A DNA stretch of 63,961 bases from the NCBI RefSeq assembly GCF_004010195.1, contig NC_057740.1:6902999-6966959 (forward strand), read 5' to 3'. The notes under the pieces were generated by a model, which was not told the origin of the DNA, ran no database searches, and was given only the letters and a program-made list of their open reading frames with translations. The DNA comes from Chiloscyllium plagiosum. Lineage: Eukaryota. The translations under genes and the position numbers were made by a program. Shown here piece after piece: positions 8,071-62,733 of the stretch (the stretch's first letter is position 1; each line of letters begins with the position of its first letter).

Positions 8071-8393
8071 TTAACAGCCGGATTGTGAGACTGTTGCGAT
8101 TGTTTCTGAAGCTGCTCCTTGTTGCACTGTGCAGGAGTACACCTTCCCACTGCTCCAATCACGGTCAGGGACGGTCAGGTAGCTGCTGAGACTGAAGCTG
8201 TTGTCCAGGTCACGGGACACCACGCTGGCTTGGACCTCACTGCTCGTCGGACTCCCATCCACTGTCCAGCTGACTACAGCAAAGCCCATGGACAGTTTGC
8301 TGACCAGACAAACTAATGTGCCTGCCCCTTTACTGGACATCATCTCATCTGAAGGCCCAAGCAGTTTTACTTAAGGGTCAGGGAGTTGCTGAG
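8071..8393 (-). pseudogene. Ig light chain C exon, cluster 1, pseudogene
   Basis: Near-identical to C2 but TCA>TAA stop at 8371-8373 (8th codon of the exon). Confidence 0.88.
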
Positions 8394-9901: not shown

Positions 9902-12900
9902 TGTAGTGACTGTAACGAGGTCAGTCAGATGGACCTCAGAATATGAGTTCCCTTATTGGAGCTGTTAATCCGGTCCAATTCGGGAAATATGGCTGACAGA
10001 TATAGACTGGTGCATCAGAGGTTCGGTTCACTCAGTGCTGGCTCTGAGAAAGTCAGACTAGCGACAAGTACTATGCACCTGTAAATAAAAGGTGATGTGA
10101 TACCAGCCTCTGTGGAGTTATGCGACAAGACTGTGATTAATAATGTAACCATACAAAAGTGCTTGCAACCTAAAGATTAAGTGGATTCAAACAGGCACTA
10201 CAACTGGCTTTGTTATTAGAAAATGAAGGATGTGGCGCGTAAGAGTTACAGGGGAGATCCATGGACTTGCCAGGCCGACTAAACTTTGAGAGAGCACTGG
10301 AGTGAAGGCAATAGCACAGCCTCACTCAGGACATATCCTGAACAGAGGGACTATGGGTCAGCCCACAGGAAAACCCTAAAACAGTGGCAATCCTCAGCCA
10401 AATAGTTAACATTTTTCAAGGATCCGGGCTGGCAGGCCATTATAGTTGCTGCTATTATGCAAACTCGAGACAGCATCAGATTTCTGCTAGACCTGAATTG
10501 AGTAAAACAACTCAGGTTGGTATCCAAGAGAGTGCACACCCTGGAAAGCCCACCTACCTTTGGTTTGGAACAATTAAATTGCTTAGCAACATCCAAATCA
10601 GAACCAAAATGTCTGGTTGAATGGTCACCTGGTTCTAATGGAGATTGATAACGGCGCAGCTATATCCGTGATTGCAAACCAGTCTTTAACAAATGAATGC
10701 TCTAGACTCCAACTCTTAAGTTTGCATAAGATCTCAGCTAGATTGAGATCCTATACTAGGGAACCTTTGCAGATTAAGGGTACAACAGCGGTTCGGGTCT
10801 TGTATGATGGTGCAAAATTAGTTGAGAAAGATTCATCTTGATTGGCTCAACATTTTTCGATTAGAAATGGCTGCCTGAGTGAAATCCTAAGAAGACACCT
10901 GGACATTTTTCAGGAAGGACTAGGAACTGTCAAAAGAGCAGCGGCCACTTTGCATCTTGACCAGGAAGCAATTCCACAATTCTGCAAGGCCTGCCCAGTC
11001 CTATTTGCCTTACGGGCAGAAGTAGTGGCTGAAATCAGGAGGCTGCAATGCGAAGGAATCGAGCCAGTGCAGTTTGAGGAATGGGCAGTACCGATTGTGA
11101 AGCCCAGTGAGTAGATTCGCCTTTGTAGGGATTTTAAATAAATAGTAAAGCGCTTCTTACAGCTGGATAAAAACATAATCCCTCACAGAGGGTTTATACA
11201 CAAATCTGGCAGGGGCTGTCTATAATGAAGCTGGACATAGCCATGTGTAATGCAACTGCAGTTAGATGAGGATTCCCAGACAAATGCCCAATTAATTCTC
11301 AAAAGCATTTGTACCAATACATGAGACTGTCAATTGGGGCATCATAAGCCTGTGTAATGTATTAGTGGACGAGAAAGAAAATTTTATATGATCTACCCCA
11401 GGTTTCCATTTATCTGGAATGATGTGCTAATAAAAGGGAAGACCAATAAAGAGCACTAGAGAACTTGGACATTGTCCTTAGATGTTTCCCCAAGATGGGA
11501 ATATGCCTTAAAAGGGGAAAATGTGTGCTTTGGGCATGCCAAGTGACCTACTTGGGCTACACCCATTGGAAGATAGTGAAGGCAATCAAAAGAGGCCCAG
11601 CTCCCACATCTGTTCCTTGGATTGGTGAGGTATTACAGAGAGTTCATACATAGCCTGGCCTCATCCTGGCACCCTTCTATCTGCTATGGGAAAATGGTCA
11701 CGCTTGGAAATGGTCTCGTAGCCAAGACGTAGCCTTTAGGGAAGTGAAGGAGCAGTTATCATCGGCCAAGGTGTTAGCACATTATGATGCCAAGTGAGAT
11801 CTGGTGCTGATGGGCAGTGCCTCCCTGTAGAGTATCAGGGTAGTGTTAGCTCGCAGATGGCCCAATGCAGAGGAATGCCCAATCGGGTATGCTTCCTGGA
11901 CTGTGGCTGATGCAGAGCACAAATACACCCAGATAGAGAAGGAAGGTATGGCGGTCATCTTTGGTGTGAGAAAGTTGTATCGATATCTATACAACACAAA
12001 TTTGTAATACTAACAGACCACCAACCCTTGGTAGGGCTACTCGAGGAGGATAAGGCAGTGCCACCATAGCTTCAGCTCGAATTCAGCATTGGACTCAGTC
12101 TAGGTGCATACAATTACACTGTGCGGAGGCCAAGTAGAAAGTGCGGATGCATTGAGCCGCCTCCCACTGGTACATATACGAATGGTAGTGCTGTCACTGG
12201 AAGAGTCCGTTCTGGCTTTAAACTTTCTGGAGTCCCTTCCAGCCATCGCTGTAAATATTGGAACGTGGACACAAAAAGATCCCGTTCTGGAAAAATATAA
12301 CAGCTGGCGGCAATGGGGGAAACATCAAAAGGGTCATCACAACCAGAACTGAAACTTCCCTGGACTCGGTGAGACCAGATCACTGTAGAGGATGGTATTT
12401 TATTATGGGGAGTGTAAGGGATTGTCCCGAGCAAAGGTTCTCATCCATTACTGGCTGAACTCCACCAGAAACATCCAGGGGTGTACAAAATGATGATGTT
12501 GATGAGAGGTTATGTCTGGTGGCCAGGATTTAATGCAGACATAGCCATGGTCATAGACAATGGGTCATCATTTTCCAGCAGGATATTCCTAAAGTTGAAT
12601 GGCATTGGCACACCAGGACAGCTCCATACCATCCATTGTCCAATAGTCTGGAAGAAAGAGCCATCCAAACTTTGAAGATAAGCTTTAAGAAACAGCTTCC
12701 ACCTTCACACATTACAAAACTGTCCCAGGTCCTATTTAATTATCTGACCACCCCTCGTAAACTCCAGGAATAGCTCCAACAGAGTTGCTATTGGGGAGAA
12801 GACACCACACCAGGTTAAATCTGATCTTCATGGACCTGGGCAAGAGGGAAAACAAGGAAGTGAAACAGTAGCAGGAACACCAATGCTTGACACAGACTCT

Positions 12901-13612
12901 GCTAAGCGAGAGACAGTTTACATGTGGATGCCGCAGCCTCAGCACCTTTACCATCTGAAGAAAAGGAGCAATTTCTTCCATCATGCTCCGGGTGCGAGAG
13001 TCAGGCTGCATATCTGGGGCTGAGTCGGAGTAACTGGACCCGGTGGGTAAACGCCCCTAAAAACGGTATGAGAAAATGAACAAGTCTGTCCTGGACTGAG
13101 AGGGGGATGGATGTAATCATGGTTGACAGGTATAAACAGGAGTGTTCCCCCTCCAATTTTATTTTGATTTAATCCCTGACCTCGCCTTCACTGTTTGATC
13201 ACACAACATTGCCCTTTGATGTGAAGGGCCCTGCTTGTCACTGGCCACTCGGGTGTTTCTTTGCTTCCTGGTGGTGGAAACTGAATAAAGATTCGTGCAC
13301 CTTGTGTCTTTCATTGTGTCTTACACTTGCACACACACAACATGGGTGCTGGGGAATAAATAAGCACTACCACAGTTTAGTGTGGGGGTAAAAATTAAAA
13401 AAAAATAAACAGAAGTGTCAGAGATTCTGTTCACTCAGATGCTGCCTCTTGAGGAAGCTGGATCAGTTTGCGAAGGATCCTCCTTGTATCAAGAGAGAAA
13501 AAAAAATTAAACAGGAGTACCGGTTCTACTCTCCCACTTCACTTTGTTTTCCCCATTAGCATTTCCCCTATCGGGTTTTGCTTGTCACTGGTTCCCTGGC
13601 CACACGGGTGCC
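9902..13612 (+). mobile_element. Degenerate Gypsy (Ty3-like) LTR retrotransposon in the J1-C1 intron
   Basis: TG-start LTR at 9902; protease-like MEIDNGAAISV, RT/RNaseH remnants, ADALSRLP and GYVWWPG integrase zinc-finger-like motifs; PPT gagagggggatgga before the 3' LTR (~13112). Confidence 0.85.
13146..13507 (+). mobile_element. Poly(A)-tailed non-LTR-type insertion(s) in the Gypsy 3' LTR, cluster 1
   Basis: AATAAA and A-tails followed by repeats of the target taaacag(g/a)agt at 13133, 13406 and 13508. Confidence 0.65.
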
Positions 13613-13809
13613 TTGAACTAAGCTAATGTCAGAAACAGCACAAACTCAGGTAGCACCAAGAGTGATTGTTCTGCTTCTGCTGCGAGACTCTGGAGAAACA
13701 ACCAACATTTTCACTCAGGTTAAGAAATAGGCATGAGGAAATAATCAAGTTTCATCAAGTGTCGAAATTCACACAGTTAGTATCCACAGAGGAATTCCCA
13801 GCCACTTAC

Positions 13810-13846
13810 CTGCAAAAAAGAGCTTGGTCTCTTGCCCAAACACACA
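13810..13846 (-). pseudogene. Defective J segment, cluster 1 (CVFGQETKLFFA)
   Basis: FGQG changed to FGQE; RSS spacer disrupted; donor intact. Confidence 0.8.
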
Positions 13847-13911
13847 CACAGTGTGATGTTCTAGGTTCTGGATCAGTGGTGGAATTCTAGGGTTCAGTCC
13901 ATACAGTTATC
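13847..13911 (+). other. Disrupted J1 RSS (spacer 49 bp instead of 23)
   Basis: 26-bp insertion in the spacer relative to J2 and J3. Confidence 0.85.
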
Positions 13912-14215: not shown

Positions 14216-14243
14216 AGTTTTTGTGTTACCTTCTGTCACTGTG
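14216..14243 (-). other. 12-RSS of V1
   Basis: CACAGTG-12-ACAAAAACT. Confidence 0.95.
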
Positions 14244-14570
14244 AGACATAAGCACTGGCCGAGCTAAACCACTTTTCACAGTAATACACGGCGGCATCAT
14301 TCACCTCCACGTTTTTGATGATTAACTGGTAAATGTTGTGGCCGCTGTTGGCTGTCGATGTGAAACGGTCGCTGCTAAACCCAGACCCATAGATAGGCGC
14401 ACTGCTCGAGTGATGGTAATAGAGGATCCACTGAGGAGCTGATCCTGGTGTCTGCTTGTACCAGCTCACAACATAGTTATCAGCCGTTCCAATGTTACAG
14501 TCCAGTGTGGCCTTGTTTCCCGGTTTCACAGTCAGGTGTGGAGGCTGAGTCAGAGTCTGACACTGTCCAT
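14244..14570 (-). CDS. Ig light chain V segment, cluster 1 (sigma-type), open frame
   Basis: V-set motifs intact; about 7 nt differences from V2. Confidence 0.9.
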
Positions 14571-14668
14571 CTGTAAAAGAGCAAGGATTAAACATCAGAA
14601 ATGGACCCTTGTAAAGGGGACTGTAAAACCCCGACCTGCTGCTGTGGAAGGAGCAGTGTTTTACTTAC

Positions 14669-24077: not shown

Positions 24078-24420
24078 GGACATTACACTCAGCTACAATT
24101 ATTAATCGCCTGATGCTGTTGGCTGATCATGAACTCACATGAAAGCCAGCATGGGGTGTTGAGCACAGCACCCACATGAACTGAAATTCCTGACTGGAGC
24201 CAAGTCACTGGTCACTGAAACGTGAAATGGGAAACTGAGCAGAACCTGCCTCAGGTACAAACACTTCAAACATAATACAGCACAAACACGCAGAGCAAAA
24301 CAGGAACACAAAATGCAGCAGATTCCAGAGGAAGCGGGTTAAGTAATGGTGAAAGGGTGGAAGCTAAGTGTCATTTTCTGCCTAAATTAGACAGCAAACA
24401 CAGATGAAACTTCCAAATAT

Positions 24421-24743
24421 TTAACAGCCGGATTGAGAGACTGTTGCGGTTGTTTCTGAAGCTGCTCCTTGTTGCACTGTGCAGGAGTACACCTTCCCAC
24501 TGCTCCAATCACTGCCAGGGACGGTCAGGTAGCTGCTGAGACTGAAGCTGTTGTCCGGGTCACGGGACACCACGCTGGTTTGGACCTCACTGCTCGTCGG
24601 ACTCCCATCCACTGTCCAGCTGACCGCAGCAAAGCCCATGGACAGTTTGCTGACCAGACAAACTAATGTGCCTGCCCCTTTACTGGACATCTCCTCATCT
24701 GAAGGCCCAAGCAGTTTTACTGAAGGGTCAGGGAGTTGCTGAG
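24421..24743 (-). CDS. Ig light chain C exon, cluster 2, intact
   Basis: cttgcag acceptor; C1-set domain (GTLVCLVS, SWTVDG, SFSLSSYLTV, YSCTV) ending in the light-chain terminal Cys (SGC*). Confidence 0.93.
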
Positions 24744-27700
24744 CTGCAAGAGAAAAGACAATGTTTGCATACAAAGTTAGCAAAGAATATAGCATCATTT
24801 CAGTTTAATAAGAACAAGTTTGAGATGTTGCAGCTTCCAGAATTGGGCCTCAGAAGGTAATCATGGGAGTTAGCATCCCTCTGTTAAGACTGTTGAGGTT
24901 TGTGACAAAAGAAAGTCCTTAATTAGGATGTCAAACCAATTGTCCTGTGGATTAGAGCATCATTCACTGTGGGGAATTCACTTCCAACTCAATGGCTGTA
25001 CACAGGTCTGTGCTATGTTGGTTCATCCCAGGTAATGTATCAGGGACACTGCAGTTGGTCTCAGTGATCCCTGCCTCTGATCTTTGTTTTCAAATTCAAA
25101 ATCTGTTTTCTGTAGAACATCACTGGACCTGAAAATTAACTCTGCTTTCTCTACAGATGCTGCCAAATCTGCTGAGTTTTCCAGCAATTCCTGTTCTTCC
25201 CGAAAACCTATTGTGATGAGCTGTGACACTGAGTTTCATGGATTTGAGGGGAAGAAACAGTCAGCGTAAAGGAGAACCACACCTGGGAATTACAGCTCTG
25301 ACCTATCTTACCATATTCCTGTTAACCCACTCCCCATTCCTACATCACTGTGCCTCTTCAATGCCAACCTCTGGCATTTGGGAATAAAATTATCTCAAAC
25401 TCTCCACAGCTTTGACTGAAAGCTCCAGGTCGTGTGGTCCTGAGTTCTACAGACTAATGAGCAACAGGACATGGAATGGTCTGTGAGGATGCTCCAATTA
25501 GCCCATTCAAGGTGAGAAGAACAAAATAATTTCTTGCTTGATCTTCAATTATCCTTTCCCCAGCCTCAACACCACCTTTATTTCCCTCAGAGTCCTCCGA
25601 ATGAGGAAAGGCTGCTGGCAGTGTACACAATGCAGCAACGTTAACTCCTGGCACAGGTTCAATGTCAACATGATGTCCAGCAGCAGCTCAGTGAGCGAGT
25701 GGTAAAGGCTAGGGTATCAGTACTGAAACTCAACACAAACCCAGCAAGCCTTTTTACTGCACACTCACTCCTGCCACAGTCCGGCTAGAGTGATGGCTAC
25801 ACCATCTCAGTGAATTCACCTCAGAACCTGAGCTCCAGCCTCAGAACTTGCAAAACCTAAATCAAAGCAACAAGTCTCCAAGGAGCAATGAGAGCAAACG
25901 ATGGTAATGAAGGAAAGGGAGCGGAGGGAGAGTTCCAGCATGTATTGGGAGAATGTGAGGAGGTGAAAACCAACGGCTTGACAAATCACCTATGAAGAAA
26001 AAATTGTTTGTGAAATGGCTTAAATTCTATCAATTTGGCCTTTAATGTAATACTTCCTTTGGTGCTGAAGTAACATTTTGTTTGATAATTCTTTACGAAC
26101 ATCCTGGAACAGTTTTCTACTATATTAAAAAGGAGCCATATTAAAGCAAGAGATTGTGTTGAGAGAGGTGGGACTTCCTTGCTCAAGAAGGGAAGACACA
26201 ACATAAGCATCGTTATGGTCATCGTCAGATTCCTAAGAGATCGAGGAGAGAAGAATGAACTAGAGCTCCTAGGTGTGAGTGAGAGGAGACAGTGCTCTTA
26301 AGAAAGCTAGGAGTTTCAGTCGGCTTACAGCAAACATTGGTTTGCTCATCTGCACCAGAAATGGAAAGGAGAAAAGCCGAGGATGGATTGGAGGTGTAAC
26401 GCCTGACGGCAGGGGGGGAAAGAAAGTGTTGAAACCGGAAGTTGTAGTGATTGAAACCAAATCAGCCAGGTGAACCTCAGAGCATGAGTTCCCTTATTGA
26501 GGCTGTTAATCCGGTCTAATCAGAGAGAGTCCTGACGGACCGATACAGACAGGAGTGTTAGAGGTTCTGTTCACTCTGAGCTGGCTCGGAGGAAGCCGGA
26601 TCAGCCTCTCGCACTATGCAGCTGTAAATAAAGGCTGAGGTGATATAGGCCTCTGTGAAGTTATTTCAATGGCGACAAGACTGGGACTAATGATGTAACT
26701 GTGCAAAGGTGCCTGCTAGCTGAAGCCCAACTGGACTTCGAACAGGCACAACAACTGGCTGTGTCATTAGAAAATGCGACAAGTGGAGCGTAAGATTTAC
26801 AGGGTATGCCGATGGAAATGGAGCCCCTCCCCAGGCAGACTGAGCTTGTAGTATCGCCTCATTCAGGACATATCCTGAACCGGAGGACTCTAGGTCAAAC
26901 CACAGCAAAACCCTAAAACAAAGCCAAGCCTCAGCCAAGCAAGTGAACATTTTCCAGGGTCCTGGCCGGCAAGCCATTGTAGTTGCTGCCGGTGTGCAGG
27001 ACCGAGACAGCAACAGAGTCCCATTAGGCCTGAACTGAGTAAAGGAACTTGTAGGCTGGTGTTCAGGACAGTGTACATCCTAGAACACCCACTTGCATTG
27101 GTCTTGAAACAGTTAAATTGCGGAGCAACATCCAAATCACAATCAAAATAAATGTCTGGTTGAATGGTCACCTGGTTCTAATGGAGGTTGATACCAGCGT
27201 GGCTGTATCAGTGATTGCAGAACCAGTCTATAACAAACTTCACTCTGGACCCCAACCCTGAACTTTGCATAAGGCCTCGGCTAGACTGAGAACCTATACC
27301 GGGGAACCTTTACAGGTTAAGGGTACAACTTCGGTTCTGGTCTCATTTGATGTTGGAAATTGGTTGAAATAGATTCACCTTCATAGCCAACCATTTTCTA
27401 ATGGATAAATGTTGAGCCCAAGTAAAGTCCTAATTAAATCCTCGGGCACTTTTCAGGAAGGAATCGGGACTATCAAAGGAGCAAAGACCACCTTGCATGT
27501 TGACTGAGAAGTGATTCCATGATTCTGCAAGGCCTGTCCTTCCAGGCAAAAGTAGAGGCAGACATCAGGAGGCTGGAAGGCGAAGGAATAATCAAACCCA
27601 TACCGTTTATGGACTGGTCTGCACCAGTCACAAGGCCGAAAGCAGAGGAATGCCCAATCGTGTGTGCTTCCTGGACTGTGGCTAATGCAGAACACAAATA

Positions 27701-29336
27701 CACCCAGTCAAAGAAGGAAAGTGAGCAGTTATCTTTCCTGTGGGGAAGTTGCACCAATACCTTCGCTCATGTAACATTGTCATAGAAACTGACCCAGAAC
27801 CCTTGGTGGGGCTACTCAAAGAGGAGAAGGCAGTGCCACCCATAACTTCAGGTTGAATTCAGCATTGGGCTCTCAGGCGAAGTGCACCCAATTACAAGTT
27901 GGAACACCGTCCGGGAAGCCAAATAGAAAATGCGGATGCATTGAGCTGCCTCCCACCAGCAGATACACCAATGGTAGTGAGGCCACTGGAAGAGTCCGTT
28001 CTGGGTTTAAACTTTCCGGAGTCCCTTCCGGCCACCGCTACAAATTTCGGAATGTGGACACAAAAAGATCCCGTCCTGGCAAAACTATAACAGCTAGCGG
28101 CGATGGGGTAAAGATCAAAAGGGCCATCACAACCTGAACTGAATACTTTCCCGGACTCGGTGAGACCAGATCACCGAAGAGGATGGCATTTTATTATGGG
28201 GAGTGTGAGTGAGTATCCCACGCAAAGGACTCTATCAGTTCCTGGCTGAACTCCACCAGGATCATCCAGGGGAGTCCAAAGATGAAGATGTTGATGAGAG
28301 GTCATGTCTGGTGGCCAGGATTGGATGCAGGCATAGCCACGTTGGTGGGTCAGTGTGCAGGGTGCCAACAGGGATAAAAATTACCATCAGCAGCTGCAAA
28401 CATCTTTTGTAATACACAGACTCCCAGAAGTCTTGGTCACAGACAAGTCTTGGACACCAGATCAGCTGCTTACCATCCATTGTCCACTGGGCTGGTGGAA
28501 AGCCAGACCAAACTTTGAAGGCTAACTTTAAAAAAACAGCTTCCACTTTCACTCATTACCAAACTGCCCCAGCTCCTATTTGATTATCTGACCACCCTTC
28601 TGGCAGCTACGGAAATAGCTCCAACAGAGTTGCAATTGGGGAGAAGACTCCACACCAGGTTAAAGCTTATCCTCCCGGACCTGGGGAAAGGGGAGCAGGA
28701 AAGTGAAACAGTATCAGGAACATCAACACTGGACACAAGACTATGCCAGGCGAGAGAGAGACAGTTCACTTCAGAAGTCAAGGTTTGGTGCCAATATCAT
28801 GGAAGTGGACCTGCATGAGAAAGAGGCATGGCTGATGAGAGGTCAGGTCCTGTCATGTACAAAGTTCAAGTCAGTGAGCTGGTTCTGAACAAGCATGTGG
28901 ACCAGATGAAAGCTGCAAACTCACAAACATGACAGGGTCAAATACCTGGTCCCTTAGATCAGTCGGAAAGGCTACTGGAACCCGTAGCTTCACCCCCACC
29001 CCATCAGTCAGAGTCAGAGACAGACACGGTGGATGTTGCAGCCTCAGCACCTTTACCACCTGAAGAAAAGGAGCAATTTCTTCCAACACGCTCTGGGTGC
29101 GAGAGTCGGTCTGTGTATCCAAGGCTGCGTCGGAGTAACTGGACCCGGTGGGTAAACCCCACTACAGACGGTATGAGAAAACGAACAGGCCTCTGTCCCT
29201 GGACAGAGAGGGGGATGGATGTAATGATTGTGTTGGGGTCAGCTAGATGGCCCTCATAGAATACGAGTTTCCTTATCGATGCTGTTAATCTGGTCCAATT
29301 GGGGGACACTGGCTGATGGGTATAAATAGGAGTGCC

Positions 29337-29667
29337 TACAAATGTCATTATTACTGTCTTGTCATGTTTGAAACTGGGATTTGAAGTTCTTCATTTCCCT
29401 GTAAACTGGTTGAACAGTCGGGTTTGGGATCTGGCTTTGCTGCTCCTCTCCCTTGTAAAAGTGCTGTTTCTTTGTATACAGGTGTTAATGTTAATTATTT
29501 TGTTAACTGTGAATTGTTTAATAAAATGTAAAAAAAACAGGAGCGTTAAGACATCCTGGTCACTCAGAGCTGGCTCTGAGGGATCTGGATCAGTGTCAAG
29601 GACTCTCCATGTGTAAATGGACTGTGACGATGATGGGAAAAAGATAACATAAAATAAATAAAATTTT
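29337..29667 (+). mobile_element. Poly(A)-tailed insertion with transduced LTR segment, cluster 2
   Basis: Perfect 14-bp TSD taaataggagtgcc (29323-29336 and 29668-29681). Confidence 0.7.
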
Positions 29668-29681
29668 TAAATAGGAGTGCC

Positions 29682-29950
29682 AGACCCACCCTCCCACTTC
29701 ATATTGAATTCCCTAGATAAGCATTTTCCCCTATTGGGCTTTGCTTGTCATTGGTTCCCTGGCCACTTGGGTGCCTTTTCCTGGTGGTGGAGAGATTGAA
29801 TACAATTATTTGCACAAAGGGGTCTTCACTGAGTCCCTGCCCTTACACAACATGGATGCTGTGGAGAAAAAATAAGCGCGACTACGGTGTTGCTGTATTG
29901 TGTGTGTGTGTGTGTATACCAAAAATAAATACATAAATAAGCAAACAACC
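29682..29950 (+). mobile_element. Older 5'-truncated non-LTR 3' end inserted at the same LTR site
   Basis: A-rich tail then the target caggagtgtca; start shared with cluster 1 (13519-13612) and cluster 3. Confidence 0.6.
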
Positions 29951-30839
29951 AACCAGGAGTGTCACAGGTTCTATTCACTATTAGCTGGCTGTGAGGAGAC
30001 TGGATCAGTGTCATGTACTATGCACGTGTATATACAGGACAACTTTATGACGGGATACTGGCCTCTGTCGAGCTATTTCAGAAATCAAGATAACAAGAGG
30101 TTCCAGTTCAGTGCAAAAATAAAAAAGCACAGACAAAGTTATCAATAGGCTTTAAAATTGAGAGAGGACTAGAGCAAAGAAATACTGACTCAGGAACTAA
30201 ACTAGTATTTTCCTGAGTACTGCATTAGCAATGCTTGGTTTCTGAGAATGATTGCTTCTGATATTTCTGTCAACATTAATAATGGGTTATGTGTAGGCAC
30301 ATTGCTACTCAACTAAAAAGCAATGACAAAGCTTCAATTAATTAATTCACCATGAAATGCTTTGGGGCATTAAAAACAAAATTAAAATTAGAAAACATAT
30401 CAATGAAGTTTCTTTCTTTCGATTTAACTCAGTGCAGCTAATATTGAATATTTTAAACAAAACCAACAGAACTAAATTTAACTGTTCCCAACATTGCACT
30501 TTATAAGCCTTGAAAAAAATTAGACCACATACTCAAATATGAGTCACCACCAAATATATTAACAAATGTACAGCATGCTAAAAAGAGTTTGTAAAATCAA
30601 AGCACTTATGAACAAAAACATGATATACAAAACTATGAACTAACAGCCAATGTCAGAAACAGCACAAACTCAGACAGGCAGCACCAAGAGTGATTGCTCT
30701 GCTTCTGCTGCTAGACTCTGGAGAAACAACCAACATTTTCACTCAGGTTAAGAAATAGGCATGAGGAAATAATCAAGTTTCAATCAAGTGCCGAAATTCA
30801 CACAGTTAGTATCCACAGAGGGAATTCTCAGCCACTTAC

Positions 30840-48402: not shown

Positions 48403-48703
48403 AGTACAGGAACAGGCTCTTCGACCCATCATGACCGTGCTGACCATGATGCCATTCTAAACTAATTTCTTCAGCAAACACATCGTCCCTATCCCTCTCT
48501 TCTGTGTTTGTCCATGTCTGCCTAAATGCCACTATTCTATCTGAACTATCTCCACAGTGAACAGTATCCCATCACTAAATCTCCCTTATTTACACATAAA
48601 CAGTCCTTGACACCTCAGAAGAGCATCCAACAAGACCCACTCTCCCTACCCTATCACACTGCATTTGCCACAGATAATCCACCAGGCCTGCACGTCGCCT
48701 GGA

Positions 48704-53030: not shown

Positions 53031-53400
53031 ATTTAAACTTTAACAGTCATTTTATATTGACATTTAAATTATTTATTAATATCACTTATATGCCCAAATA
53101 CTATATGAGGGTTGTATGATATAATAAAATGTTGTCATTGGATTATCTTCTTCCTATGTCGCATAATAATGAATCAATTCTTTAAATATTAGTCTTGGCT
53201 CAGCAGGAGCACATTGATTTAAACTTTAACAGTCATTTTATATTGACATTTAAATTATTTATTAATATCACTTATATGCCCAAATACTATGAGGGTTGTA
53301 TGATATAATAAAATGTTGTCATTGGATTATCTTCTTCCTATGTTGCATAATAATGAATCAATTCTTTAAATATTAGTCTTGGCTCAGCAGGAGCACATTG
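53031..53400. repeat. Tandem duplication of an AT-rich ~185-bp unit
   Basis: 53031-53216 and 53217-53400 nearly identical. Confidence 0.9.
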
Positions 53401-55949: not shown

Positions 55950-56170
55950 TCACATGAAATCCAGCATGGGGTGTTGAGCACAGCACCCACATGAACTGAA
56001 ATTCCTGACTGGAGCCAAGTCACTGGTCACTGATACGTGAAATGAGAAACTGAACAGAACCTGCCTCAGGTACAAACACTTCAAACATAATACAGCACAA
56101 ACACACAGAGCAAAACAGGAACACAAAATGCAGCAGATTCCAGAGGAAGAGGGGACAGGGAGTTGCTGAG
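55950..56170 (-). pseudogene. C exon remnant of cluster 3: C domain deleted, acceptor fused in frame to the 3'UTR
   Basis: Acceptor and AQQLP retained, then the sequence jumps (~56153) to UTR. About 390 bp corresponding to 24339-24727 is missing. Confidence 0.85.
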
Positions 56171-58139
56171 CTGCAAGAGAAAAGACAATGTTTGCATACA
56201 AAGTTAGCAAAGAATATAGCAGCATTTCAGTTTAATAAGAACAGGTTTGAGATGTTGCAGCTTCCAGAATTGAGCCTCAAATTTATCGTGGGAGTTAGCA
56301 TCCCCCTGTTAAGACTGTTGAGGTTTGTGACAATAGAAAGTACTAATTCGGATGTCAAACCAATTGTCCTGTGGATTAGAGCATCATTCACTGTGGGGAA
56401 TTCACTTCCAACTCAATGGCTGTACACAGGTCTGTGCTATGTTGGTTCATCCCAGGTAATGTATCAGGGACACTGCAGTTGGTCTCAGTGATCCCTGCCT
56501 CTGATCTTTGCTTTCAAGTTCAAAATCTGTTTTCTGTAGAACATCACTGGACCTGAAAATTAACTCTGCTTTCTCTACACATGCTGCCAAATCTGCTGAG
56601 TTTTCCAGCAATTCCTGTTCTTCCTGAAAACCTATTGTGATGAGCTGTGACACTGAGCTTCATGGATTTGAGAGGAACAAACAAACAGTCAGCGTAAAGG
56701 AGAACCACATCTGGGAATTACTCCCCATTCCTTCATCACTGTGCCTCTTCAATGCCAACCTCTGGCATTTGGGAATAAAATTATCTCAAACTCTCCACAG
56801 CTTTGACTGAAAGCTCCAGGTCGTGTGGTCCTGAGTTCTACAGACCAATGAGCAACAGGACATGGAATGGTCTGTGAGGATGCTACAATTAGCCCATTCA
56901 AGGTGAGAAGAACAAAATAATTTCTTGCTTGATCTTCAATGATCCTTTCCCCAGCCTCAACACCACCTTTATTTCCCTCAGAGTCCTCTGAATGAGGAAA
57001 GGCTGCTGGCAGTGTACACAATGCAGCAACGTTAACTCCTGGCACAGGTTCAATGTCAACATGATGTCCAGCAGCAGCTCAGTGAGCGAGTGATAAAGGT
57101 TGGGGTATCAGTACTGAAACTCAACACAAACCCAGCAAGCCCTTTTACTGCACACTCACTCCTGCCACAGTCCGGCTAGAGTGATGGCTACACCATCTCA
57201 GTGAATTCACCTCAGAACCTGAGCTCCACCCTCAGAACATGCAAAACCTAAATCAAAGCAACAAGTCTCCAAGGAACAATGAGAGCAAACGATGGTAATG
57301 AAGGAAAGGGAGCGGAGGGAGAGTTCCAGCATGTATTGGGAGAATGTGAGGAGGTGAAAACCAATGGCTTGACAAATTACCAATGAAGAAAAAATTGTTT
57401 GTGAAATGGCTTAAATTCTATCAATTTGGCCTTTAATGTAATACTTCCTTCGGTGCTGAAGTAACGTTTTGTTTGATAATTCTTTACGAACATCCTGGAA
57501 CAGTTTTCTACTATATTAAAAAGGAGCCATATTAAAACAAGAGATTGTGTTGAGAGAGGTGGGCCTTCCTTGCTCAAGGAGAAGGGAAGACACAACATAA
57601 GCATCGTTATGGTCATCGTCAGATTCCTAAGAGATTGAGGAGAGAAGAATGAACTAGAGCTCCTAGTGTGAGTGAGAGGAGACAGTGCTCTTAAGAAAGC
57701 TAGGAATTTCAGTCGGCTTACAGCAAACATTGGTTTGCTCATCTGCACCAGAAATGGAAAGGAGAAAAGCCGAGGATGGATTGGAGATGTAACGTCTGAC
57801 AGCAAGGGGGGAAAAGAAAGTGTTGAAACCGGAAGTTGTAATGATTAAAACGAAATCAGCCATGTGAACCTCAGAGCATGAGTTCCCTTATTGAGGCTGT
57901 TAATCCGGTCTAATCAGAGAGAGTCCTGACGGACCGATACAAACAGGAGTGTCAGAGGTTCTGTTCACTCTGAGCTGGCTCGGAGGAAGCCGGATCAGCT
58001 TCTCGCACTGTGCAGCTGTAAATAAAGGCTGAGGTGATATAGGCCTCTGTGAAGTTATTTCAATGGAGACAAGACTGGGACTAATGATGTAACCATGCAA
58101 AGGTGCCTGCTAGCTGAAGCCCAACTGGACTTCGAACAG

Positions 58140-58669
58140 ATTCTGGATTAGTGGTGCTGGAAGAGCACAGCAGTTCAGGCAGCATCTGCGGAGCAGTAAA
58201 AATCGATGTTTCGGGCAAAAGCCCTTCATCAGAAATAAAGGCAGAGAGCCTGAAGCGTGGAGAGATAAGTGAGAGGAGGNNNNNNNNNNNNNNNNNNNNN
58301 NNNNNNNNNNNNNNNNNNNNNNNNNNNNNNNNNNNNNNNNNNNNNNNNNNNNNNNNNNNNNNNNNNNNNNNNNNNNNNNNNNNNNNNNNNNNNNNNNNNN
58401 NNNNNNNNNNNNNNNNNNNNNNNNNNNNNNNNNNNNNNNNNNNNNNNNNNNNNNNNNNNNNNNNNNNNNNNNNNNNNNNNNNNNNNNNNNNNNNNNNNNN
58501 NNNNNNNNNNNNNNNGCAACGGATACAATAAATGATATTAGTGGATGTGCAGGTAAAACTTTGATGGATGTGGAAGGCTCCTTTAGGACCTTGGATGGAG
58601 GTGAGGGAGGAGGTGTGGGCGCAGGTTTTGCAGCTCCTGCGGTGGCAGGGGAAGGTGCCAGGATGGGAG
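58140..58669 (-). mobile_element. Penelope-like element fragment (GIY-YIG-adjacent region plus terminal repeat) inserted into the cluster 3 Gypsy
   Basis: Minus-strand translation GTFPCHRRSCKTC...FTCTSTNIIYCIRC; 13-bp TSD-like ggacttc(g/a)aacag; absent from cluster 2; spans a gap. Confidence 0.75.
58280..58515. other. Assembly gap (N run)
   Basis: N run. Confidence 1.
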
Positions 58670-60205
58670 GGACTTCAAACAGGCACAACAACTGGCTGTG
58701 TCATTAGAAAATGCGACAAGTGGAACATAAGAGTTACAGGGTATGCCGATGGAAATGGAGCCCCTCTGCAGGCAGACTGAGCTTGTAGTATCGCCTCATT
58801 CAGGACATATCCTGAACCGGAGGACTCTAGGTCAAACCACAGCAAAACCCTAAAACAAAGCCAAGCCTCAGCCAAGCAAGTGAACATTTTCCAGGGTCCA
58901 GGCCGGCAAGCCATTGTAGTTGCTGCCGGTGTGCAGGATCGAGACAGCAACAGAGTCCCACTAGGCCTGAACTGAGTAAAGGAACTTGTAGGCTGGTGTC
59001 CAGGACAATGTACATCCTAGAACGCCCACTTGCATTGGTCTTGAAACAGTTAAATTGCGGAGCAACATCCAAATCACAATCAAAATAAATGTCTGGTTGA
59101 ATGGTCACCTGGTTCTAATGGAGGTTGATACCAGCGTGGCTGTATCAGTGATTGCAGAACCAGTCTATAACAAACTTCACTCTGGACCCCAACCCTGAAC
59201 TTTGCATAAGGCCTCGGCTAGACTGAGAACCTATACCGGGGAACCTTTACAGGTTAAGGGTACAACTTCGGTTCTGGTCTCATTTGATGTTGGGAAATTG
59301 GTTGAAAAAGATTCACCTTCATAGCCAACCATTTTCTATTGGATAAATGTTGAGCCCAAGTAAAGTCCTAATTAAATCCACAAGCGCTTTTCAGGAAAGA
59401 ATCGGGACTACCAAAGGAGCAAAGACCACCTTGCATGTTGACTGGGAAGTGATTCCATGATTCTGCAAGGCCTGTCCTTCCAGGCAAAAGTAGAGGCAGA
59501 CATCACGAGGCTGGAAAGCGAAGGAATAATCAAACCCATACCGTTTATGGACTGGTCTGCACCAGTCACAAGGCCCAAAGCAGAGGAATGGCTTATCGCG
59601 TGTGCTTCCTGGACTGCGGCTAATGCAGAACACAAATACTCCCAGACAAATAAGTGAGCAGTTATATTTCCTGTGGGGAAGTTGCACCAATACCTTCGCT
59701 CATGTAACATTGTCATAGAAACTGACCACCAACCCCCGGTGGGGCTACTCAAAGAGGAGAAGGCAGTGCCACCCATAACTTCAGGTTTAATTCAGCATTG
59801 GGCTCTCAGGCGAAGTGCACCCAATTACAAGTTGGAACACCGTCCGGGAAGCCAAGTAGAAAATGTGGATGCATTGAGCTGCCTCCCACCAGCAGATACA
59901 CCAATGGTAGGGAGGCCACTGGAAGAGTCCGTTCTGAGTTTAAACTTTCCGGAGTCCCTTCCGGCCACCGCTACAAATATCGGAATGTGGACACAAAAAC
60001 AACCCGTCCTGGCAAAACTATAACAGCTGGCAGCGATGGGAGAAAAGATCAAAAGAGCCATCACAACCTGAACTGAATACTTTCCCGGACTCGGTGAGAC
60101 CAGATCACTATAGAGGAAGGCATTTTATTACGGGGAGTGTGAGGAAGTGTCCCACGCAAAGGACTCTATCAGTTCCTGGCTGAACTCCACCAGGATCATC
60201 CAGGG

Positions 60206-60256
60206 GCCGAATGGCCTTACTTCCACTCCTATGTCTTATGGTCTTATGGTCTTATG
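60206..60256 (+). mobile_element. Tiny 3' end of a CR1-like LINE (tcttatgg tail), cluster 3-specific
   Basis: Absent from the cluster 2 paralog; reverse complement of the CR1 tail at ~32260-32305. Confidence 0.65.
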
Positions 60257-61695
60257 GGAGTCCAAAGATGAAGATGTTGATGAGAGGTCATGTCTGGTGG
60301 CCAGGATTGGATGCAGGCATAGCCACGTTGGTGGGTCAGTGTGCAGTGTGCCAACAGGGATAAAAATTACCATCAGCAGCAAATATCTTTTGTAATACAC
60401 AGACTCCCAGAAGTCTTGGTCACAGACAAGTCTTGGACACCAGATCAGCTGCTTACCATCCATTGTCCACTGGGCTGGTGGAAAGCCAGACCAAACTTTG
60501 AAGGCTAACTTTAAAAAAACAGCTTCCACTTTCACTCATTACCAAACTGCCCCAGCTCCTATTTGATTATCTGACCATCCTTCTGGCAGCTACAGAAATA
60601 GCTCCAACAGAGTTGCAATTGGGGAGAAGACTCCACACCAGGTTAAAGCTTATCCTCCTGGACCTGGGGAAGGGGGAGCAGGAAAGTGAAACAGCAGCAG
60701 GAACATCAACACTGGACACAAGACTATGCCAGGCGAGAGAGAGACAGTTTACTTCAGAAGTCAAGGTTTGGTGCCAATATCATGGAAGTGGACCTGCATG
60801 AGAAAGAGGCATGGCTGATGAGAGGTCAGGTCCTGTCATGTACAAAGTTCAAGTCAGTGAGCTGGTTCTGAACAAGCATGTGGACCAGATGAAAGCTGCA
60901 AACTCACAAACATGACAGGGTCAAATACCTGGTCCCTTAGATCAGTCGGAAAGGCTACTGGAACCCGTAGCTTCACCCCCACCCCATCTGTCAGAGTCAG
61001 AGACAGACACGGTGGATGTTGCAGCCTCAGCACCTTTACCACCTGAAGAAAAGGAGCAATTTCTTCCAACACGCTCTGGGTGCGAGAGTCGGTCTGTGTA
61101 TCCAAGGCTGCGTCGGAGTAACTGGACCCGGTGGGTAAACCCCACTACAGACGGTATGAGAAAACGAACAGGCCTCTGTCCCTGGACAGAGAGGGGGATG
61201 GATGTAATGATTGTGTTGGGGTCAGCTAGATGGCCCTCATAGAATACGAGTTTCCTTATCGATGCTGTTAATCTGGTCCAATTGGGGGACACTGGCTGAT
61301 GGGTATAAATAGGAGTGCCTACAAATGTCATTATTACTGTCTTGTCATGTTTGAAACTGGGATTTGAAGTTCTTCATTTCCCTGTAAACTGGTTGAACAG
61401 TCGGGTTTGGGATCTGGCTTTGCTGCTCCTCTCCCTTGTAAAAGTGCTGTTTCTTTGTATACAGGTGTTAATGTTAATTATTTTGTTAACTGTGAATTGT
61501 TTAATAAAATGTAAAAAAAACAGGAGCGTTAAGACATCCTGGTCACTCAGAGCTGGCTCTGAGGGATCTGGATCAGTGTCAAGGACTCTCCATGTGTAAA
61601 TGGACTGTGACGATGATGGGAAAAAGATAACATAAAATAAATAAAATTTTTAAATAGGAGTGCCAGCCCCACCCTCCCACTTCATATTGAATTCC

Positions 61696-61843
61696 NNNNN
61701 NNNNNNNNNNNNNNNNNNNNNNNNNNNNNNNNNNNNNNNNNNNNNNNNNNNNNNNNNNNNNNNNNNNNNNNNNNNNNNNNNNNNNNNNNNNNNNNNNNNN
61801 NNNNNNNNNNNNNNNNNNNNNNNNNNNNNNNNNNNNNNNNNNN
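61696..61843. other. Assembly gap (N run)
   Basis: N run. Confidence 1.
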
Positions 61844-62733
61844 CACAGGTTGTATTCACTATTAGCTGGCTGTGAGGAGACTGGATCAGTGTCATGTACT
61901 ATGCACGTGTATATACAGGACAACTTTATGACGGGATACTGGCCTCTGTCGAGTTATTTCAGAAATCAAGATAACAAGAGGTTCCAGTTCAATGCAAAAA
62001 TAAAAAAGCACAGACAAAGTTATCAATAGGCTTTAAAATTGAGAGAGAGGACTAGAGCAAAGAAATACTGACTCAGGAACTAAACTAGCATTTTACTGAG
62101 TACTGCATTAGCAATGCTAGGTTTCTGAGAATGATTGCTTCTGATATTTCTGTCAACATTAATAATGGGTTATGTGTACGCACATTGCTACTCAACTAAA
62201 AAGCAATGACAAAGCTTCAATTAATTAATTCACCATGAAATGCTTTGGGGCATTAAAAACAAAATTAAAATTAGAAAACATATCAATGAAGTTTCTTTCT
62301 TTCGATTTAACTCAGTGCAGCTAATATTGAACATTTTAAACAAAACCAACAGAACTAAATTTAACTGTTCCCAACATTGCACTTTATAAGCCTTGAAAAA
62401 AATTAGACCACATACTCAAATATGTGTCACCACCAAATACATTAACAATATATTGCAATGCTAAAAAGCTAAAAAAAGTTTGTAAAATCAAAGTACTTAT
62501 GAACAAAAACATTATGATGTACAAAACTATGAACTAACACCCAATGTCAGAAACAGCACAAACTCAGACAGGCAGCACCAAGAGTGATTGCTCTGCTTCT
62601 GCTGCTAGACTCTGGAGAAACAACCAACATTTTCACTCAGATTAAGAAATAGGCATGAGGAAATAATCAAGTTTCAATCAAGTGCCTAAATTCACACAGT
62701 TAGTATCCACAGAGGGAATTCTCAGCCACTTAC

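Follow-up and report, generated by a model that had tools for sequence, protein, structure and literature searches.

The whole stretch of Chiloscyllium plagiosum DNA analysed here, 63,961 nucleotides in length and referred to as the window, contains three immunoglobulin light-chain clusters; they are related units, each on the minus strand. An old LTR retrotransposon lies on the plus strand between J and C of every cluster (9902-13613, 26443-30080 and 57841-61961), antisense in the J–C intron, and is the same element in all three, which indicates that it was amplified along with the cluster. The compact V-J-C arrangement of the clusters points to a cartilaginous fish. The segments of cluster 1, and the parts of the host element that lie upstream of the inserts, are as follows:

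14236-14661, minus strand: V (V-set) of cluster 1
near 13810-13853, minus strand: J of cluster 1
8071-8367, minus strand: C (C1-set) of cluster 1
9902..10126, plus strand: 5' LTR of cluster 1, with the insertion target site altered and empty
10127..13111, plus strand: broken internal region of cluster 1, RNase H and then the integrase zinc finger
13098-13111, plus strand: polypurine tract of cluster 1
26443..26668, plus strand: 5' LTR of cluster 2, with the target site empty

The host LTRs are about 225 bp long with TG..CA ends, and the element has a TGG primer site, a polypurine tract, a short flanking duplication and an RNase H match (PF17917/PF17919, 11831-12004) placed before that of the integrase zinc finger (PF17921, 12418-12672). 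By structure and domain order this fits a Ty3/Gypsy-type element; of the 54 internal frames scanned, none gave a Pfam match to a reverse transcriptase. The duplication is seen in cluster 2 as GAAGT 5' of the 5' LTR and GAAAT 3' of the 3' LTR (5 bp, four of five positions alike). The 5' LTR of cluster 1 has a TATA-like word at 10001, an initiator-like A at 10030 (29 nt on) and AATAAA at 10084, and the distance from TATA to the initiator-like word is 29 nt in all three 5' LTRs, as predicted from the sequence rather than from transcript starts.

The Gypsy-type element of cluster 1 lies about 200 nt from J, which reads FGQET (window 13800-13900), and FGQGT in clusters 2 and 3. An insertion of about 25 nt adjoins the signal heptamer of this J, and cluster 1 may be impaired, though its V frame is open. 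Cluster 3 is without a C exon: at 56149-56153 it has nothing that corresponds to 24338-24722 of cluster 2. Clusters 2 and 3 are 99.0-99.7% identical at 28700-29712 and 60683-61695, and 96-98.5% in the other stretches compared; this raised identity lies beside an N gap and suggests either recent gene conversion or an assembly effect. Just 3' of the 5' LTR of cluster 3 is a repeat with a cysteine-rich, endonuclease-like frame (58137-58540), an N gap and no Pfam match, which may be Penelope-like. An exact-looking tandem duplication of 186 nt (98%) at 53031-53400 is possibly an assembly artefact.

The 3' LTRs contain stacked inserts—A-tailed and all in the LTR orientation—that lie between copies of an 11-14-bp motif, which we call the target. 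The arrays are composed as follows:

13112..13144, plus strand: 3' LTR U3 remnant of cluster 1, shortened internally by a deletion of about 80 nt and closed by target copy 1 (TATAAACAGGAGTG, 13131-13144)
13145..13406, plus strand: insert A, the 3' end (5'-truncated) of an A-tailed repeat that is very abundant
13407..13417, plus strand: target copy 2 of cluster 1 (13 bp if the AT before it is counted)
13418..13506, plus strand: LTR R-region piece of another subfamily and an A-run, ending at the poly(A)-signal position
13509..13519, plus strand: target copy 3 of cluster 1
13520..13613, plus strand: cluster 1 copy of insert B, cut by a deletion with which the rest of the LTR was lost
29220..29334, plus strand: 3' LTR U3 of cluster 2, with target copy 1 (T variant, core 29324-29334) at its end
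29335..29534, plus strand: insert C, T-rich, with AATAAA close before its A-tail
29535..29668, plus strand: target copy 2 (C variant), an LTR R piece of another subfamily and an A-rich tail
29669..29961, plus strand: target copy 3 (T variant), then insert B at full length (29680-29950), then target copy 4 (29951-29961)
29962..30080, plus strand: rest of the host 3' LTR of cluster 2 (R-U5, CA end)
61203..61961, plus strand: array of cluster 3, the same as that of cluster 2, with B and target copy 4 mostly in the N gap

Clusters 2 and 3 are identical at 377 of 378 positions across the array and are thus counted as one witness. The deletion at 13613/13614 fuses insert B of cluster 1 to sequence matching 30636 of cluster 2; the end of the LTR has been lost together with about 550 nt of the intron, and the junction is also present in a contig of a public run (X18) that bears another organism label.

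The full motif at 13131-13144 coincides with the predicted TATA box, and the whole TATA is found in this first copy of cluster 1 only. The two copies that follow are degenerate, with an 11-nt core at 13407-13417 and 13509-13519 that has one mismatch each and is preceded in both cases by an A-run. The earlier note had placed the reiterated motif at 13133, 13406 and 13508; the copies are real and the later ones do stand behind A-runs, but the positions it gave are those of the T before the core. Across the window the core occurs 13 times at one mismatch or less, compared with 2.19 expected, a count reached in 0 of 100 shuffles, and 12 of the 13 occurrences fall within LTRs of the Gypsy-type element. 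All three 5' LTRs are without an insert, and in each of them the TATA or the core is altered.

The inserts are of two unrelated kinds. A is related to B (29680-29950), with a local score of 71 against a shuffle maximum of 25, a kinship absent from the earlier note, and C is unrelated to either: its local score against A is 20, which is reached by 48 of 300 and 57 of 300 shuffles. A (13145-13406) differs from the insert at the same position in clusters 2 and 3, as the earlier note has it, and its count of at least three events at one site is supported: B, which is shared, A in cluster 1, and C in clusters 2 and 3. The cluster 1 and cluster 2 copies of B are identical at 78 of 94 positions, and C is represented by one independent copy in the window. 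A search of 29150-30150 against Rfam gave one match, far below the gathering score, and none near the gathering score for C. Outside the arrays, a sensitive BLAST search of the window for A, B and C found no copies apart from two short, weak matches (E 0.01-0.04).

Four of the 24 public runs listed (X8, X15, X18 and X21) were aligned to 13040-13700 at 80% likeness, with 13384-13415 left out; for the genomic contigs of X8, about 84% of the run was read and 5368 records aligned. The X8 contig depth is 2e5-1.2e6 on A and 15-55 on its flanks, with a sharp edge at 13145; depth on A is not a copy number, and we infer a family of the order of 10^4 copies. Upstream of 13145, other copies of A run into sequence that is alike among them and is not that of the LTR (77 contigs of X8), and the same continuation is found in 93 RNA reads of X21, four records of X15 and 12 of X18. 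The great excess of A over its flanks, together with the copies that continue upstream, shows that A is not LTR sequence, so that for A the possibility that the inserts are a normal part of the LTR, named in the earlier note as what would refute its proposal, is excluded.

The idea that the whole array is the normal structure of an LTR subfamily or a local tandem duplication, formed without retroposition, draws on the recurrence of LTR sequence within the array. It has to contend with the empty site in all three 5' LTRs and in a contig from another locus, with an insert far commoner than the LTR and variable at its 5' end, and with repeated LTR pieces that belong to a subfamily other than the host's and run out into A-runs. 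We regard it as scarcely credible, and for A the depth and joint data largely refute it. Three related candidates were rejected: a nested LTR or TRIM array, in that the units start at the target and not at TG; the split repeats of Ngaro/DIRS elements, against which the A-tails and variable 5' ends speak; and a local tandem duplication of the LTR, which is ruled out by the subfamily columns described below.

The sequence upstream of A in its other copies reads in one frame up to a stop at 13170-13172. About nine codons of this coding portion lie in the window, and the frame across the 5' edge of A, at fewer than 20 codons, is not significant alone; the only frame across that edge has 30 residues, of which about 20 are LTR-derived. 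The short frame at the edge may resemble the end of a Tx1L or Tx1-type ORF2, and a five-residue word taken from it had no match in a literature search. A is likely to be the last codons and 3' UTR of a LINE; C is likely the 3' end of a second LINE. First mates of X21 on A are mainly of the minus strand (878 versus 32 in the deepest bin); read in the customary way, this suggests sense RNA, and priming on A-tails inside pre-mRNA would give the same pattern. No RNA run is listed as containing 12900-13900, and no X21 reads fall on 13385-13545 at 80% likeness, a result with no bearing on LTR activity. A 24-nt pattern from A was found at 0 loci in viral contigs and 0 in metagenome contigs; its sole match in a prokaryote genome was rejected as chance, lying in bacterial coding DNA of 55% GC for which BLAST, at E 0.01, gives no match to the window.

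The inserts could also be non-autonomous RNAs—SINE-like in the case of A and B, the 3' end of an mRNA in that of C—for which another LINE with this target supplied the machinery in trans, in the way that Tx1-Mar mobilises SINEU. C is unrelated to A and B and yet has the same junction, and no coding domain is seen in the inserts, as this would have it; but other copies of A continue upstream in one frame to the stop, and the AATAAA of C stands only about 4 nt before the tail, closer than is usual for mRNAs. We consider such an origin very improbable, with a precedent in SINEU, which shares the target of Tx1-Mar (PMC4494074).

The placing of A at other loci was examined in joints, contigs in which two parts of the reference are brought together. 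A joint is visible only where the flank resembles the reference. There are 35 distinct joints, 23 of which are listed; 525 loose ends and 20 joints of table 5 lie beyond these. In eight of the 23 listed joints the end of a target copy (13144-13147 or 13517-13519) leads into A at eight different points: 13180, 13210, 13211, 13223, 13231, 13267, 13328 and 13338, one contig each. Seven of them come from X8 and one from X18. Their sides measure 20-26 nt where given (five of eight), and such lengths often come from repeats. No LTR-to-A joint from another position of the LTR is present among the 23 listed, a set in which off-target copies cannot show as joints. In a ninth joint two pieces of A follow each other head to tail, separated by an A-run and a word resembling the target, and one contig shows the empty LTR site. 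Four joints combine A-like and B-like sequence in single contigs, and thus B-type copies exist elsewhere. In 52 RNA reads the loose-end consensus after the A-run resembles the target at an agreement of 0.55, which carries no weight. In a further joint (13295 to 13212, depth 95) a piece of A that stops at its internal AATAAA is linked to a second piece by an A-run lacking the target word; this is a possible off-target or amplified tandem form.

Whatever the truncation point, the upstream junction is fixed within 3 nt, and it is common to B, C and the LTR pieces. The 3' poly(A), the variable 5' truncation and the 11-14-bp target-site duplication are those of target-primed reverse transcription, and the presence of independent 5'-truncated copies at the same position and in the same direction is the evidence for targeting used by Kojima 2015. 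With respect to the threshold of >20% of flanks in the same work, all eight listed LTR-to-A joints are on the site, a figure in which off-target copies are uncountable and the 3' flanks lie outside the alignment. What stands of the targeting system put forward in the earlier note is that retroposition struck one nucleotide of a Gypsy-type LTR again and again, in this window and, by the joints, at other loci. We think it probable that the stacked inserts of the two unrelated families were placed at this 11-14-bp site by a sequence-specific LINE endonuclease of L1/Tx1 type.

A generalist, abundant LINE with a strong hot spot here would also give such stacks; most of its copies would be elsewhere, and an open or bent TATA region and earlier A-tails would attract insertions. 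The depth of A is more than 1000-fold above that of the LTR piece (about 100-140), as would be expected of such a LINE, and most of the loose ends lie beyond those listed; the depth gap may reflect either the 80% likeness cut-off acting on an old LTR or a family that is mostly sited elsewhere. Set against this are the junction fixed within 3 nt in all eight listed LTR-to-A joints despite their differing truncation, and the position of the younger inserts directly behind the TATA-bearing copy. The L1 target consensus is 5'-TTTT/AA-3' (PMC1950540), and the best hexamer at the target has two mismatches to TTAAAA, for which the window offers 83 perfect sites and 1086 with one mismatch or less; no copy is found outside the arrays amid these 1086 better sites. 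Neither the target nor the inserts thus show the short-consensus site and dispersed copies of a generic L1, and we hold a generalist LINE to be possible though unlikely.

The LTR pieces that follow A and C include 16 nt upstream of the initiator-like word, and so they are not a transcript from a lone LTR's own start. The cluster 2 piece runs on for about 20 nt beyond the position of the poly(A) signal (29638), the cluster 1 piece ends at that position, and an A-rich tail follows in each case. At six columns, three of them clean (19, 75 and 77), the two pieces agree on a base that none of the three host LTR copies in the comparison has; pairs of a host copy and a piece share no clean column, the two 5' LTRs share three and the two cluster 2 LTRs share one. 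As judged from these columns—five old sequences and three clean columns—the LTR pieces behind A and C belong to another LTR subfamily than the host. An X18 contig spanning 13328-13641 matches the cluster 2 piece at another two columns (13478-13479). On the minus strand at 48541-48622, beside a SINE-like repeat, lies a 3' fragment from this LTR family; it is without the target site and is closer to these LTR pieces at one diagnostic column.

In mammalian L1 3' transduction, transcription reads through a weak poly(A) signal and the flank downstream of it is carried to a new site. The target of mammalian L1 is short and promiscuous, whereas the flank that appears to have been carried here is the target LTR itself: the LTR pieces are likely 3' transductions, the donors being copies that already occupied this site in an LTR of another subfamily. 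Cluster 2 has T in target copies 1 and 3 and C in copies 2 and 4. T in copies 1 and 3 with C in copy 2 is the pattern expected of insert C arriving together with copy 2 and the LTR piece, an argument that consists of one base and is silent for cluster 1. The simplest account of these bases would be a single RNA, comprising insert C, copy 2 and the LTR piece, that entered a T-bearing site later than the split from cluster 1; with that timing, the LTR piece of cluster 1 would be a separate event. It is also possible that sequential insertion of the polyadenylated end of a Gypsy RNA made the LTR pieces, above all that of cluster 1.

If a sequence-specific LINE endonuclease is at work, the enzyme would nick the bottom strand in the TATA/AAA stretch, reverse transcription would proceed from the poly(A) of the RNA, and a top-strand cut after GGAGTG would yield the 11-14-bp duplications. 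The word GGAGTG also occurs in the upstream sequence of A a few bases before the start of A, and the same word ends the target; microhomology between the two may explain why A and B start near the same point. Every event would duplicate the site and leave the TATA in the upstream copy available for the next insertion, so that sense-oriented stacks would grow behind the TATA-bearing copy. B would have been inserted first, before clusters 1 and 2/3 split, followed later by A with an LTR piece into cluster 1 and C with an LTR piece into clusters 2/3, from one read-through RNA each. The donors would already have been at this site in another LTR, with RNA polyadenylated at or near the signal of the donor LTR.

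A further proposal is that at least two unrelated LINE families converged here with the LTR as an expression cassette, the site lying between the TATA box and the poly(A) signal. The LINE would gain a promoter upstream and polyadenylation downstream, the Gypsy element would be severed from its own transcription start, and the transduced LTR pieces would be a fossil record of master copies working inside the target. In a full-length copy at this site the TATA would stand immediately upstream of the LINE, with the poly(A) signal of the LTR downstream; from the spacing, transcription would be expected to begin about 15 nt within the LINE and so to wear away its 5' end, and capture of the promoter is accordingly a minority reading that we find distinctly unlikely.

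Tx1 families that target transposons are known, two of which prefer specific LTR retrotransposons, and copies stacked around the duplication, with possible transcription from the target, are described for such families (Kojima 2015, PMC4494074); transposons are likewise among the targets of such elements noted in PMC4640811. LINE homing to another transposon, LTR elements included, is already published. The earlier note, which took Tx1-group elements that target other repeats as established, had thought that a family targeting a Gypsy LTR promoter could be an undescribed parasite-of-a-parasite system. By analogy the present system would work like Tx1-8_Crp and Tx1-4_AMi, crocodilian Tx1-clade LINEs for which the passages of PMC4494074 compared give no LTR family or position and so neither state nor exclude a TATA-box site; it differs from them in its cartilaginous-fish host, in having two unrelated 3' ends at one site, and in the apparently transduced LTR pieces. 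Tx1L of Xenopus laevis, located in the DNA transposon Tx1D, is likewise a parasite of a parasite, with one fixed site and a sequence-specific apurinic-type endonuclease (PMC1950540, PMC4494074), and is specific where L1 is promiscuous (PMC1950540); its target is a non-autonomous piggyBac-type DNA transposon, and here it is an LTR promoter. SINEU-3 and Tx1-Mar in Mariner-N4_AMi are alike in placing several elements on one target in stacked arrays, and there too 5'-truncated copies are the proof of independent insertion (PMC4494074); they differ in their Mariner target and in snRNA-derived heads, none of which are seen here. In the literature searched, whose coverage leaves out Repbase Reports and most subscription journals, there is no report of a shark or ray LINE at the TATA box of a Gypsy element.

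If the reading of a sequence-specific LINE is true, a precise target, the core promoter of an LTR, would join the known targets of site-choosing Tx1-type LINEs, and would do so in a vertebrate group without such a report in the literature searched. The transduced LTR pieces would tag the donors, which opens the question whether active copies reside within the target and draw on its promoter and poly(A) signal. Work on how apurinic-type endonucleases come to be specific would also gain a candidate, a very abundant vertebrate LINE whose 11-14-bp site is fixed.
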